The notes under the pieces were generated by a model that was not told where the DNA came from, made no database searches, and saw nothing but the letters and a program-made list of their open reading frames with translations. Shown in pieces: positions 12,817-49,280 of a DNA stretch of 64,000 bases; positions within the stretch are counted from its first letter, which is position 1; the number at the start of each line of letters is the position of its first letter. A program made the position numbers and the translations under genes. The DNA is from a bacterium HR11 (GTDB taxonomy: Bacteria > Acidobacteriota > HRBIN11): assembly GCA_002898535.1 (NCBI GenBank), contig BEHN01000003.1:192952-256951 (forward strand). The letters are read 5' to 3'.

Positions 12817-12895
12817 CAGAGCCGTTCGGTTCGTGAGAAGGGCGTCGGGACGGCCCTCTCCATCGCCCGGGAAGCACGATGTTTCAAAGGGATGA
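12817..12895 (+). repeat. Family-1 intergenic element (CAGAGCCGTTCGGTTCGTGAGAA core plus GGGAAGCACGATGTTTCAA module)
   Basis: Starts on the stop codon of the oxidoreductase. Same core at 4706, 25989(-), 31739, 35626, 35870, 41754, 43123, 43665(-), 43864, 44085(-), 49275(-). Confidence 0.6.
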
Positions 12896-12961
12896 AGGGA
12901 CGGAGTGACGAAGGAACGCAGTGACGAGCCACGGCCTTGGGCCGGTCGGCCGATAGACCCC

Positions 12962-13130
12962 TTCGCTCATATCAGCTCATGGCTCATGGCTCATAGCTCA
13001 TGGGCCATAGGAGCCCATGGGTCATAGCTCATGGCCCCTATTGGCTCATAGCTCATAGTCCCATGAGCCATCAGCCATGAGCCATGAGCCAATATGAGCT
13101 ATGAGCCATGAGCCAATAGGGGCCACGAGC
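12962..13130. repeat. Family-4 (GCTCATG)n long palindrome
   Basis: Tandem gctcatg/gagccat units symmetric about ctcatagtcccatgag. Confidence 0.55.
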
Positions 13131-13165
13131 GCATCTCACCGGGACCTGGCACCCGGAACTCGAAT

Positions 13166-13215
13166 CCATCTTGCATGTTGCATCCTTTATCCTGTATTTT
13201 GCATCTGCTATCTCT
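13166..13215 (+). repeat. Family-3 promoter-proximal heptamer array (CYTGCAT)n, same orientation as metG
   Basis: cttgcat gttgcat cctttat cctgtat tttgcat ctgctat, ending 23 nt before the metG ATG. Confidence 0.55.
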
Positions 13216-13237
13216 CTGACTTTCACCGTTGGACTCG

Positions 13238-46734: not shown

Positions 46735-47742
46735 ATGGCAGTCCGCGTGGGCATCAACGGGTTCGGCCGGATCGGCCGGAATTTCTTCCGGGTCGCGTAC
46801 CGGGAGTCGGACTTCCAGATCGTCGCCGTCAACGACATCACGGACGCCCGTACCCTGGCCCATCTCTTGAAGTACGACACCGTCCTGGGCCGTTTCGAGG
46901 CCGACGTCCGGTACGATGCGGAGCACATCTTCGTGGACGGTCAATCGATTCGGGTCCTCTCCCGGAAGGACCCCGCCGAACTGCCCTGGAAAGACCTGGG
47001 CGTCGACGTCGTCATCGAGTCGACGGGCCTCTTTACGGACCGGGACAGCGCGGCCAAACATCTGGCCGCCGGGGCCAAACGGGTCATCATCTCGGCCCCG
47101 GCCAAGAAGCCGGACATCACGATCTGTATGGGCGTCAACCACGAGCTGTACGACCCGGCCAAGCACTTCATCCTGTCCAACGCCAGTTGTACGACGAACT
47201 GTCTGGCCCCGGTCGTGAAGGTCTTGTTGAAGAACTTCGGGTTCGTCGCCGGCTTCATGTGTACGACCCACGCTTACACGAACGACCAGCGAGTCTTGGA
47301 CCTGCCGCATCGGGACCTGCGCCGAGCCCGGGCGGCGGCCGTCAACATCATCCCGACGACGACCGGAGCGGCCATCGCCGTCGGGGAGGTCATCCCGGAG
47401 GTCCGGGGTCGGCTGGACGGGATCGCCCTGCGGGTCCCCGTGCCCGACGTGTCGGCCATTCAGTTGACGGCCGTCCTGGAGAAGACCGTGACGGTCGAGG
47501 AGGTCAATCAGGCGTTTCGGTCGGCGGCCGAGCAAGACCTGCGGGGGATCTTGGCGTATACCGACGAGGAACTCGTCTCGAGCGACTACATCAAGAGTCC
47601 GTACTCGGCCGTCGTCGACGGGCCGTGCACCCGGGTCGTGAACGGCAACGTCGTCTCGGTCGTCGCCTGGTATGACAACGAGTGGGGCTTCTCGACCCGG
47701 CTCCGGGACCTGGTCCACTGGATGATCCGCCGGGGCCTATAG
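46735..47742 (+). CDS. gap: Type I glyceraldehyde-3-phosphate dehydrogenase
   Basis: [19 protein letters not shown]...[10 protein letters not shown] (catalytic Cys)...[16 protein letters not shown] 7 nt before the ATG; -10-like TTATAAT at 46640. Confidence 0.9.
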
Positions 47743-47761
47743 GGGCGCAGACGTCCCGTCT

Positions 47762-48439
47762 GTGGGAGCGCAGGCCTCTGGCCTGCCGAGAAGATACGCC
47801 GTGAGGGACCATCGCTACTGGCGCTTTAACTTGGCCCGGACGCCGATCCGGCTCCGGGCCTCGACCGTGAGCCTGTGGCTTCTGGTCGCCCTGGGCGCTG
47901 TCGCTTTCTTTTTAACGGACCTGGCCCTTCTGGCGGTAGAAGCCCAGCGGACGTACCAGGCGTACCAGCGCCGTCAGTCCCTCCGGCAGGCCGCCGCCCG
48001 CCAGCAGGCGACCATCGACCGGATCCGCCGTCAGATCCAACAGGCCGACACGCCGACCTTCCGTCAGGAGTGTGCCTTTCTGGGTCAACAGCTCCAGGCC
48101 CGGAACTTCTCGTGGTCCGACCTTCTGCGACACCTGGAGGAGGTCCTGCCGCCGAACGTCCGCATGCAGGCCATCACGCCGAATCCCCGGGAGTCGTCGC
48201 CGGGGTCGCCCACGCAGGCCGCCGGGACGATTCCGGTCGCCCTAATCGTGGAAGCCCGCCGGCTCCAGGACTTTACCGAGATGTTCCACCGGATGTATCA
48301 GAGCGGTCTGTTTTCGGACATCCGCGTCCGTCGGGAGGAGCGAGACGCCCAAACGCAGACGATCCGCTTTGACATGACCGTCCTGTATCGGACCCGCCCC
48401 GAGGTCCTGTCGGCCCTGGCCGGTGAGCGAGGACCATGA
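47762..48439 (+). CDS. pilN: PilN-like type IV pilus / T2SS inner-membrane platform protein (GTG start)
   Basis: Short cytoplasmic N-terminus, one TM (LWLLVALGAVAFFLTDLALLAV), then coiled-coil and PilN-type periplasmic domain. Confidence 0.55.
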   Translation: MGAQASGLPRRYAVRDHRYWRFNLARTPIRLRASTVSLWLLVALGAVAFFLTDLALLAVEAQRTYQAYQRRQSLRQAAARQQATIDRIRRQIQQADTPTFRQECAFLGQQLQARNFSWSDLLRHLEEVLPPNVRMQAITPNPRESSPGSPTQAAGTIPVALIVEARRLQDFTEMFHRMYQSGLFSDIRVRREERDAQTQTIRFDMTVLYRTRPEVLSALAGERGP

Positions 48440-49041
48440 ACTGGCGGACCTTTGAGCGGCTCGAAACGATCTGGCAGTGGATGGAGCGCCGACACTTCGC
48501 CCGGTGGGTCCTGACTCTGCTGATCATCGACCTCGCCCTGCTGGTCGTCGGATACGGCCCCCTACGGTGGATGGACACGCGCCTGCGGGCTGACATGCAA
48601 GCCGCCGAGCAGGACGTGCGGGCGACCCGTCAGGCCCTCCTGGAATGGCACTCGGCGCTCCAACGGGTCCAGCGGGCCCAACGGACGCGGGATGACCTCC
48701 TCTATCGTCAGTTCCTTCCGGAGGACCGGGGCTTCCCGGCCGTCCGGGACGCCCTCGAGACGATGGCCATGCAAGCCGGTCTGCGGGTCCAGAACTTCAC
48801 ATATGCTTATGAAGCCGTGAAGGTCCCCCCCGTGCAGAGCCTCGGCGTCCAATTTTCTCTTACCGGTGGCTACGAGCAGATTCGACGGTTCATCCAGAGC
48901 ATCGAGACGGCGCCCCAATTCCTGATCTTGGAATCGATTCGACTCCGCTCCTCCCAGCAGGGCGGCGGCGTCGAGCTGGAGTTGACCCTCCGGACTTTCT
49001 TGGTCCGGGGCGCGGCGGGTAGGGAGAAAGGGACGGAGTGA
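48436..49041 (+). CDS. pilO: PilO-like platform protein
   Basis: TM (WVLTLLIIDLALLVVGY), coiled-coil, PilO/GspM C-terminal fold; ATGA overlap with pilN. Confidence 0.55.
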   Translation: MNWRTFERLETIWQWMERRHFARWVLTLLIIDLALLVVGYGPLRWMDTRLRADMQAAEQDVRATRQALLEWHSALQRVQRAQRTRDDLLYRQFLPEDRGFPAVRDALETMAMQAGLRVQNFTYAYEAVKVPPVQSLGVQFSLTGGYEQIRRFIQSIETAPQFLILESIRLRSSQQGGGVELELTLRTFLVRGAAGREKGTE

Positions 49042-49042
49042 C

Positions 49043-49280
49043 GAGAGCGTTCCATTCCACTGCTGAGACGCCGAGAAAAATCGAAGAAAACCCTCGTCCT
49101 CTGCGCCTCGGCGGTGCGTTTTGCAACAGACCCGACCTGCCGACCTGCCGACCTGCCGAATTCCCGAATTCCCGAATTCCCGAACTCCCGAATGGCTCTT
49201 GGCTTGAAAAACCGTCCTCTCCGAATGGTCGGAAAAGCCGGATCCATGCGGGTTTTTACGAACCGAACGGTTCCGTTCTA
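49043..49280. repeat. Composite: module 5, GGCAGGT heptamers, (CCGAATTC)n octamers, family-1 core (inverted)
   Basis: ...gacctgccgacctgccgacctgccgaattcccgaattcccgaattcccgaactcccgaatgg...catgcgggtttttacgaaccgaacgg. Confidence 0.5.

Follow-up and report, generated by a model that had tools for sequence, protein, structure and literature searches.

Genomic setting and copy number

The window analysed here, 64,000 nt of contig BEHN01000003.1 from bacterium HR11, carries ordinary chromosomal housekeeping genes, among them those for a ClpB-like protein, MetRS, LeuRS, a class II ribonucleotide reductase, QueC, HemC and GAPDH. Its G+C content is 63-69%, and no tRNA was found in it. Scattered between these genes is a repeat, called family 1, which an earlier note made from the sequence (the original prediction) had described as a 23-bp palindromic core occurring in mosaic with other modules. 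Our analysis confirmed the repeat as a genuine family of short non-coding elements with inverted repeats, restricted to the lineage and located between housekeeping genes.

When both strands of the window were searched for the 23-mer CAGAGCCGTTCGGTTCGTGAGAA with up to three mismatches, 10 matches were found against 0.01 expected from dinucleotide-preserving shuffles. The 13-nt terminus CAGAGCCGTTCGG gave 23 matches with up to two mismatches, where 3.9 were expected. A census of termini was made by a relaxed scan that also required a GAGAA-like box a few bases downstream, followed by curation. This yielded 19 termini between 4.3 and 49.3 kb, a density of about one per 3.4 kb (Table 1). All 19 fell outside the Pfam-supported parts of genes; the elements occupy intergenic DNA. 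Every copy of the original prediction was recovered, with offsets of 1-3 nt depending on the strand end quoted, and the positions it gave as 25989, 43665, 44085 and 49275 proved to be ends of reverse-strand copies.

Structure of arms and doublets

Alignment of the copies placed the 23-mer at the outer tip of an arm that extends well beyond it. Every terminus consisted of CAGAGCCGTTCGG, three to four variable bases and then (GT)GAGAA, after which at least four arm types diverged: A (...TGGCGTCGGAACCACCTTTCCCATCGCCCGGGAAGCACGATGTTTCAA), B (...CCCGCATGGATTCGGCCTTTCCGACCCTTCGGGGCGGACGGTTTTTCAAGC), C (GAGGTGAGAAGTGCGATGGGAAGCGGAAAGGGCACCTCC..CGAAAGCACGATTTTTCAA) and D (CTGGGAGAAATGGTGCTCCCATCCGGGAAAACGATGG...CTCGATTTTTCAAGC). 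A 23-bp inverted repeat is common to A and B arms, which differ in subterminal sequence; all arms have the 13 bp and the GAGAA box. A full-length arm measured about 75 nt, and most arms closed with a small hairpin followed by a ACGATTTTTCAA (ACGrTTTTTCAA) box, past which a tandem array of 7- or 8-nt units nearly always started. A 5-bp core stem with one G-T pair was found in A and B arms (GAGCC-GTTC-GGTTC) and a shorter one in D arms (AGCC-GTTC-GGCT); C arms were stemless. Across about 40 copies from two genomes (the second, a metagenome-assembled genome or MAG, is described below), the 13-mer terminus was more than 90% conserved, and terminus and box were far better conserved than the spacer.

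The full unit is a doublet of two inverted, tail-to-tail arms flanking a variable centre that consists mainly of 7- and 8-nt tandem arrays. Doublets ranged from 75 to 400 bp and contained no open reading frames (ORFs). Five doublets accounted for 10 of the 19 termini in the window, and the other nine were solo arms joined to arrays or to "module 5", a sequence of about 120 nt; both associations had been predicted. Also as predicted, copies were joined to the module GGGAAGCACGATGTTTCAA, of which seven copies were present against 0.02 expected. In the MAG, a pattern scan detected seven doublets (L001, L002, two in L003, L005, L006 and L009), and a possible eighth (L004) was detected by nhmmer only. 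The A...B form recurred there at 233-247 bp in L001, L002, L006 and L009 with conserved arms and wholly different arrays in the centre.

Inverted hairpin doublets thus predominate and their ends outconserve the spacer, the arrangement typical of REPINs (hairpin-forming doublets of REPs, repetitive extragenic palindromic elements). The terminal inverted repeats (TIRs), length and absence of coding capacity likewise agree with the 15-30 bp, 70-300 bp and non-coding nature of miniature inverted-repeat transposable elements (MITEs). Two of the doublets, 4302-4701 and 31739-32018, are the same composite in opposite orientations, and the former is separated from the following element by ATAG alone. 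The 75-bp doublet at 43123-43197 looks like another internal-deletion-type fusion, comparable to the 99-bp doublet at 41754-41852.

Table 1. Family-1 elements in the window, with curated termini and matches to the 23-mer CAGAGCCGTTCGGTTCGTGAGAA (up to three mismatches)
Coordinates	Strand	Element	Termini	23-mer match	Context and remarks
4302-4701	+	Composite doublet C...D, 400 bp	4302+, 4701-		C arm at 4302, expanded GGCAGNTG octamer array 4380-4505, inverted D arm ending at 4701
4706-4815	+	Solo B arm (CAGAGCCGTTCGGTTCGTGAAAA + CCCGCATGGATTCGGC)	4706+	4706+	Runs into palindromic GGCTCAT/ATGAGCC heptamer array
12817-12889	+	Solo A arm + GGGAAGCACGATGTTTCAA box	12817+	12817+	Begins right after TAG of GFO_IDH_MocA gene; octamer and palindromic heptamer arrays to ~13130
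24532-24670	-	Two degenerate termini	24598-, 24670-		B-like, ending at 24598-24600, and C-like, at 24670; nhmmer E = 4e-9 (B model)
25917-25993	-	Solo A arm + box	25990-	25968-	Between epimerase gene and class II ribonucleotide reductase gene
31739-32018	+	Doublet D...C, 280 bp	31739+, 32018-		D arm left, inverted C arm right; between convergent DUF5666 and QueC genes; absent from syntenic contig L025
35629-35703	+	Solo B' arm	35629+	35629+	Directly abuts likely start TTG of minus-strand PD40-repeat gene
35870-35943	+	Solo A arm + box	35870+	35870+	Inside LeuRS-PD40 intergenic composite; orthologous in L032, absent from L025, L028-L031, L033 and L034
41754-41852	+	Hairpin doublet, A/B deletion derivative, 99 bp	41754+, 41852-	41754+	Long A...B form at same site in L027
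43123-43197	+	Minimal hairpin doublet A-C, 75 bp	43123+, 43197-	43123+	First ~50 nt of A arm fused to inverted C-type terminus; module 5 precedes
43591-43664	-	Solo A arm + box	43664-	43642-	Flanked by octamer arrays and, at the opposite end, by inverted module 5
43863-44085	+	Canonical A...B doublet, 223 bp	43863+, 44085-	43863+, 44063-	Palindromic GGCTCAT array central; empty site in L026
49202-49277	-	Solo B arm, somewhat degenerate (CGGAACCGTTCGGTTCGTAAAAA...GGACGGTTTTTCAAGC)	49275-		Then TTCGGGAA octamer array; nhmmer E = 7e-21

Folding and terminator tests

The original prediction had named two self-contained hairpins, at 43123-43198 and 41754-41852, and both were real: 43120-43200 folded at -37.8 kcal/mol (z = -5.6 relative to shuffles) and 41751-41855 at -51.4 kcal/mol (z = -4.0). 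The canonical doublet 43863-44085 folded as a single long hairpin (z = -11.6). Doublet 31739-32018 paired only at its tips (z = -2.9), and in 4302-4701 pairing was seen only between the termini (z = -0.15). Folding of individual instances was better than in shuffles for the doublets at 41754, 43123 and 43863 but not for solo arms, in which conserved RNA structure was rejected (z between -0.6 and +1.3). A consensus fold of 14 A arms from the two genomes contained 19 pairs at -10 kcal/mol and showed no compensatory changes. The whole window gave no match to Rfam 15 at gathering scores; at permissive thresholds, 42900-44200 returned only generic hairpin (miRNA-precursor) matches far below threshold.

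A terminator scan picked up the pre-box hairpin and T-run in two arms, of A and B type. These arm hairpins were weak, with four G-C pairs, and were separated by as much as 2 nt from the point where the T-rich window of the scan begins. Arms showed no orientation preference relative to genes, and those at 25990 (-), 35629 (+), 35870 (+) and 49275 (-) were antisense to both neighbours. Dedicated terminators were rejected on arm orientation. The weak hairpins and shuffle-like solo folds also depart from intrinsic terminators or 3' stabilising hairpins, which should have a stable G+C-rich stem with a U-run immediately after it and lie downstream of, and co-directional with, the gene served. The terminator or RNA-stabiliser role put forward in the original prediction thus found no support in these tests, given the lack of Rfam matches, compensatory pairing and orientation bias. 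These negative results indicate that what is conserved is primary sequence, as would be expected of a DNA element with recognised ends.

Two further candidates were discarded. Integron attC sites did not fit, since the neighbours are housekeeping genes in both orientations, the wrong context for cassettes, and the GTTRRRY motif is absent. LexA-type operators were rejected because the spacing of paired termini is variable.

Presence and absence in close relatives

Syntenic contigs were reached through HemC and QueC homologues. No family-1 terminus was detected by pattern search or nhmmer at the shared sites of L025 (JGI; 84-93% nucleotide identity to the window) or L026 (NCBI JANXAA01; 81-90%), against eight in the window. 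Jointly, these two contigs span the sites of 41754-41852, 35629, 35870, 31739-32018, 43123-43197, the copy ending at 43664, and 43863-44085. L027 (93.5% identity) carries an element at the 41754 site in a long form made up of A arm, box, centre and B arm, and the 99-bp hairpin of the window is that element minus its centre. At the LeuRS-PD40 site, L032 (about 88% identical overall) has the same composite of about 420 nt as the window. The corresponding space measured 13-46 nt in L028, L029-L031, L033 and L034, and 155 nt in L025. Differences in presence, absence and length among relatives of 81-94% identity therefore indicate that the family has been gained, lost and remodelled on the time scale of close species.

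Similar replacement was observed at the 3' end of HEM4, where L027 (2340-2417) has a family-1 B arm and a CGTGACG array; at the orthologous site the window (39566-39690) and L025 (2300-2480) have a GATGCAA-type heptamer array instead. Target sites are blurred because repeat cassettes were replaced rather than interrupted. L025, L026, L028 and L029 are without elements, yet their intergenic DNA is mostly replaced, and only the 43863-44085 site is informative on duplication.

Flanking sequence and insertion junctions

The bases outside 41 termini were strongly biased. TA occurred at positions -3/-2 in 24 of the 41 (59%), compared with 2.75% in the same intergenic regions (p = 3e-27). T was found at -3 in 30 termini and A at -2 in 31; position -4 was T-rich, and base -1 was G, A or T, giving the flank signature HTAD. 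By eye, 10 of 15 non-TA flanks were one substitution from TA. Scored by doublet, TA was present on both sides in five, on one side in five and on neither in two of 12, so that the two sides behave independently. TA was absent to the right of 43863-44085 and at the 35629 junction. The 4302-4701 element reads TA-G[..]A-TA-G directly before the next element.

Flanks and termini coincide with gene boundaries at several loci. The GFO_IDH_MocA gene ends at a TAG (12814-12816) that directly abuts the terminus at 12817, the stop-codon overlap noted in the original prediction, and the HypD gene in MAG locus L005 also ends at a flank TAG. Two further MAG genes end at TGA within GTGAGAA, and others end further inside the arm. 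At the opposite gene end, the suggestion that the copy at 35626 provides a start region is plausible, short of proof: apart from a TTG in contact with the terminus, the PD40-repeat gene has no start codon close by.

Two junctions could be read against relatives. At 44085 the element ends in ...GGCTCTG and the flank begins TCAGGGGAGGTCGG; L026 reads ...CATCATAATAC|TCAGGGGAGGTCGG (also given as ...CATAATAC), with nothing duplicated. At 35629 the junction is ...GGCTCTG|TTGTAC, and the sequence from TTGTAC onward is homologous to the N-terminal coding sequence of PD40 in L028. The composite has therefore replaced the original PD40 start and about 30 codons, and the TTG at the terminus is likely, from its position, to be the new start. 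The N-terminus of PD40 was found to vary among relatives (window 35500-35630 on the minus strand, L028 2255-2400, L029 3720-3860, L025 6167-6300). Only a hydrophobic signal-peptide core, preceded by TTG, remains in the protein of the window and L032, and in L029 a GGTCTAT-type heptamer array overlaps the gene start.

The flank data agree with TA-adjacent insertion without duplication and, to the same degree, with a TA duplication that has since decayed; the one clean site speaks for the former. A rival explanation is a classical MITE family, in which the elements would be deletion derivatives of an insertion sequence (IS) with 23-bp TIRs, moved as double-stranded DNA by a TA-duplicating DDE transposase of the IS630/Tc1-mariner kind. 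Much of the anatomy agrees with this. The distinct A and B subterminal sequences behind a common inverted repeat are what the left and right ends of a parent IS should look like, the sizes of 75-400 bp without coding capacity are suitable, and what is conserved in the terminus is its sequence, not a hairpin. The frequent TA one base outside the terminus, the near-TA remainder, the doublets with TA on both sides and the arrangement at 4302-4701 point in the same direction, and insertion at TAG or TAA stops in a 65% G+C genome would follow naturally. Several features do not fit. The right flank of the cleanest empty site shows no duplication of TA or any other sequence, and the 35629 junction has no TA. 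A base varying between G, A and T separates TA from CAG, which is odd for a transposon end, and TA on the two sides of a doublet is independent. No parent IS was seen in the window or the fetched loci, and at least four freely recombining arm types are more reminiscent of a bacterial interspersed mosaic element (BIME) than of derivation from a single IS. We regard the classical MITE as unlikely, if worth keeping in view.

The junctions also bear on whether transposition is needed at all. Family 1 might instead be a by-product of intergenic DNA in this lineage tending to gather short modules (arms, boxes, 7/8-nt arrays) and to swap them through slippage, template switching and ectopic recombination, with no transposable family involved. 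The predominance of cassette replacements over clean insertions would be expected under such a process, as would the many combinations of arm types, and arrays exist without arms, including in a more distant relative without the family (L021). However, at CAG/CTG the junctions are exact and homologous host sequence continues immediately beyond them, and the TA flank signature is strong. The 13-mer is also conserved over some 40 copies in two genomes, and the repeated occurrence of a full-length A...B form of 223-247 bp argues for a defined unit whose ends are recognised. Recombination alone therefore seems highly doubtful as an explanation.

Constraint on one copy

The LeuRS-PD40 composite was unusually well conserved. 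Window and L032 were 95.4% identical over 391 aligned bases, compared with 85.3% at third codon positions of LeuRS (Fisher p = 4e-6). Other intergenic regions, compared with a similarly distant relative, were 57-90% identical with large indels. There was no sign of a recent recombination tract in the flanking coding sequence. This single locus suggests that at least some copies may be kept by selection, for example as untranslated or promoter regions.

Such constraint would be expected if the repeats were host-functional cis elements, that is, protein-binding sites (13-mer plus GAGAA box) and/or terminating or stabilising RNA hairpins, spread mainly by recombination and kept by selection. The much stronger conservation of terminus and box than of spacer in two genomes, the arm hairpins found by the terminator scan, and the supply of stop codons and proximity to start codons would agree with this. 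Against it stand the lack of orientation bias relative to neighbouring genes, solo arms that fold like shuffles without compensatory pairs or an Rfam match, and a paired-terminus spacing of 75-400 bp, unlike that of operators. In close relatives with intact genes, orthologous sites are also found without elements, and the conservation result comes from one locus. A purely host-functional nature thus appears improbable.

A stronger version would have the repeats, in what is a deep-branching thermophilic lineage, as more than selfish DNA: a domesticated system of gene-boundary cassettes, in which arms and palindromic arrays supply stops, untranslated regions (UTRs) and promoter spacing under purifying selection, and centres are made by a dedicated mechanism linked to the ACGATTTTTCAA box rather than by ordinary slippage. 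An orthologous copy evolving about three times more slowly than third codon positions would fit, and we nevertheless consider this very improbable.

Distribution outside the window

A search for the exact 21-mer in a collection representing 185,579 species gave matches in one genome only, the hot-spring Acidobacteriota MAG JAUQPV01. Its nine loci contained approximately 22 termini with the same arm types and other array units. No orthologous genes common to the window and the fetched JAUQPV01 loci were found. Outside the window the family was seen only in this MAG and in two contigs of close relatives (L027 and L032; 88-94% nucleotide identity). Exact-pattern matches were obtained at nine loci of metagenome contigs. 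Seven of them, with 35-46% G+C, were dismissed as unrelated chance matches, and the 13-nt terminus was not found in the other two, L014 (45% G+C) and L016 (62% G+C). One match in the viral collection lay in a coding region and was attributed to chance; the plasmid collection gave none. Proteins from the edges of the window led at most to a 2-kb Logan contig.

In Proteobacteria, Firmicutes and Cyanobacteria, short interspersed repeats have been the subject of much study. A full-text literature search found nothing relevant for the sequence and no description of small interspersed repeats in this lineage. For the MetRS of the window, a 97% near-identical copy, one relative at 75% and one at 59% were found before similarity dropped to about 54%, indicating that the lineage is sparsely sampled.

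Similarity to known systems

A likeness to BIME/REP or Correia-type mosaics with different sequences, proposed in the original prediction, held in its main points: modular arms, hairpin-forming inverted doublets, solo units, extragenic location, and placement against stop and start codons. BIMEs of E. coli combine REPs with accessory motifs, and the pneumococcal BOX element has the form boxA-boxB(n)-boxC. Family 1 resembles both in being built from a small vocabulary of units, with two unlike terminal modules and a variable number of internal repeats. Its internal repeats, however, are 7/8-nt arrays of many unrelated and often palindromic sequences rather than one 45-nt box, and the sequences are unrelated.

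Correia/NEMIS of Neisseria and RUP of Streptococcus pneumoniae are non-coding MITEs of 70-300 bp with TIRs of 15-30 bp that target TA. Family 1 is similar in size, TIRs, TA by the termini, insertion at gene ends giving stops or UTRs, and internal-deletion variants. It differs in lacking a TA duplication at the one clean site and in the variable base between TA and terminus. It further differs in its four or more interchangeable arm types, and no IS630-like parent was found in the window or the fetched loci.

REPs and REPINs associated with REP-associated tyrosine transposases (RAYTs), in particular the GTAG-1 REPs of Pseudomonas, provide a further comparison (Bertels & Rainey 2011, PMC3116915; Di Nocera et al. 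2013, PMC3733652). Both they and family 1 are extragenic and of high copy number, with conserved ends, a less conserved spacer, inverted doublets that fold into hairpins, and many solo units. REPs insert without target duplication, and none was seen at the cleanest site of family 1, a single imperfect comparison. The conserved unit of REPs is a short imperfect palindrome with a stem of 5-13 bp and a loop of 2-4 nt. The core of family 1 can be read as a tag (TAG, TAA or TAT), a dinucleotide (CA), a 5-bp stem, a 4-nt loop, the second half of the stem and a short tail. GTAG-1/2 REPs have the same layout of tag, dinucleotide, stem, loop, stem and tail, with 5-bp stems in one species (PMC3116915, PMC3733652). 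Centres with 7/8-nt arrays and doublet sizes of 75-400 bp set family 1 apart.

In Acidobacteria, RAYT-like "TIRYT" genes are flanked by inverted repeats that form repeat families (PMC3733652). These "TIRtrons", for example that of Koribacter versatilis ORF1552, come from the same phylum-level neighbourhood as family 1, and their proposed mobilisation is by RAYT-like tyrosine transposases (PMC3733652, which also names Correia/NEMIS and RUP elements). TIRtrons resemble family 1 in having longer inverted repeats that are not GTAG REPs and in occurring as dimers or clusters. The GGGGWSAS motif of some TIRtron repeats is absent from family 1, and the density of family 1 (19 termini in 64 kb) appears much higher than that of the "moderately abundant" families described.

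Proposed mode of spread

Our preferred explanation, to which we assign a probability of roughly 0.45 and which is correspondingly tentative, is a non-autonomous REPIN- or MITE-like family spread in trans by an enzyme encoded elsewhere and diversified by slippage, internal deletion and recombination of modules. Family 1 would then represent the conserved terminal arms of lineage-specific, non-coding interspersed elements, copied through a transposase whose gene lies elsewhere in the genome. That enzyme could be a single-strand, hairpin-dependent HUH tyrosine transposase of the RAYT/TIRYT type, inserting without target duplication; a RAYT had been suggested in the original prediction, and the idea is still attractive. 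We consider an HUH enzyme somewhat more likely than an IS630/Tc1-type DDE enzyme, a slight preference based on the hairpin doublets, the tag-dinucleotide-stem-loop-stem-tail layout, the lack of duplication at the clean site and the TIRYT precedent in Acidobacteria. After insertion, the arrays in the centre may expand and contract by slippage, and recombination between shared modules may shuffle the arms into the observed mosaic. Some copies could later become 5' or 3' UTRs of neighbouring genes and be retained by selection.

A number of observations weigh against this explanation, its HUH component or a place among REPs proper. The flank is not the GTAG (or CGTC) tag of REPs and REPINs: of 41 termini, just two have G at -4 and 59% have TA, compared with a tag conserved in more than 90% of the members of REP families. 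Arms, at about 75 nt, are three times as long as REPs (20-40 nt). The core stem, with its G-T pair, is weak; C arms are without it, and neither covariation nor compensatory change was seen in it. This fits recognition of double-stranded sequence better than recognition of a hairpin. TA on both sides of five doublets fits a TA-duplicating DDE transposase as well. Absence of duplication rests on one imperfect comparison, since at the L026 empty site for 43863-44085 the right junction is exact and the left flank differs (9 vs 3 nt). Most differences between window and relatives are exchanges of one repeat cassette for another, not simple insertions. Paralogous copies are 80-92% alike, with no sign of a recent burst. 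About 40 ORFs near copies in the window and MAG loci were individually scanned with Pfam; the families obtained were all housekeeping ones, and none was a transposase. For 45 MAG ORFs, a summary scan that lists the 25 best-represented families out of 81 showed none either. In the sequence covered, which comprises about 64 kb of the genome, about 58 kb from the MAG and a few contigs of short length, neither a transposase or RAYT nor a parent IS with these termini was seen.

Among REPIN- or MITE-like elements, family 1 is unusual in its interchangeable arm types, in palindromic centres filled with arrays and in a flank of TA type where GTAG would be expected. Should there be a RAYT/TIRYT-type enzyme flanked by these termini, the range of REPIN-like systems would widen to a new lineage, one whose tag is unusual and whose centres bear arrays. 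The family is a dense one in an uncultured hot-spring lineage with few sequenced relatives, and its presence/absence differences among close relatives could serve as a strain marker. It also offers a natural experiment on the reshaping of gene boundaries, with one copy on a stop codon, one composite replacing N-terminal coding sequence and start, and one copy splitting a gene from its upstream array.

Other repeats and features in the window

Dozens of intergenic tandem arrays with a period of 7 or 8 nt were present in the window, for example at 4380-4505, 12975-13130, 29811-29862, 43469-43593, 43968-44042, 49132-49193 and 49984-50057; others were found in L021 (9730-9786) and L005 (2428-2532). 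Their units were often unrelated to one another (GGCTCAT, GGTCTAT, GATACGG, GGCAGGTC, TTCGGGAA and ATGGGGA in the window; GGGTGCT and CGTGACG in the MAG and L027), and GACACCC was the unit in the relative with 75% MetRS identity, which is without family 1. Arrays were often palindromic, the array being followed by its own reverse complement. They resemble the heptamers of cyanobacterial short tandemly repeated repetitive (STRR) sequences.

One array type had a largely constant position. GCATCYT-type heptamer arrays were found at 13166-13208, 15859-15893, 18064-18084 and 43810-43851 on the plus strand and at 17819-17881, 39582-39624 and 60159-60207 on the minus strand. In six of seven arrays, by detection with a script, a long ORF started 19-42 nt downstream, and the array was invariably in sense with it; the 39582 array was recognised only by eye and by Tandem Repeats Finder. 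They were conserved at the same sites in L025 and L026. Between the seventh array, at 43810, and its gene there is only the 223-bp family-1 element, and in L026 the array is directly upstream of the gene. This placement suggests that GCATCYT-type arrays may have a promoter or 5'-UTR role.

Module 5 (..CATTCCACCGCTGAGACGCCGAGAA...CGGCGGTGCGTTTTGCAACAG) was found at 43002-43122 (+), 43665-43790 (-) and 49051-49130 (+). It contains an internal hairpin and ends in a hairpin with a T-run. In two copies GCTCTAA connects the module with a family-1 terminus; the third borders directly on an octamer array. The module was absent from the syntenic region of L026. Close to the first copy, the island 43201-43242 (TCAAAGATAGGATAAGTTCCTGCGGACGGCCCGTCAATGGA) is conserved with L026 although all its surroundings differ. 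Its minus strand matches the promoter pattern TTGACG-17-TATCCT, and it is likely to be the promoter, as predicted from this match, of the Fe-S cluster assembly gene at about 42606-42950.

Three tandem 11-mers (TTTCCACAGTC-like) occupy 26031-26064, some 220 nt upstream of the gene (26279) for the class II ribonucleotide reductase, and may be binding sites for a regulator; Rfam detected no riboswitch there. A very large ORF of about 1,300 aa at 50682-54638 on the minus strand contains 72-75-nt coding repeats rich in GCC GCC, suggesting a putative repetitive surface protein. Within 50709-51197 a 225-nt unit is repeated about 2.2-fold with 93% match, and a more diverged third copy extends to 51242. 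Another large ORF contains, at 62227-63066, two 300-nt segments (beginning at 62227 and 62767) that lie 540 nt apart and are 99% identical.

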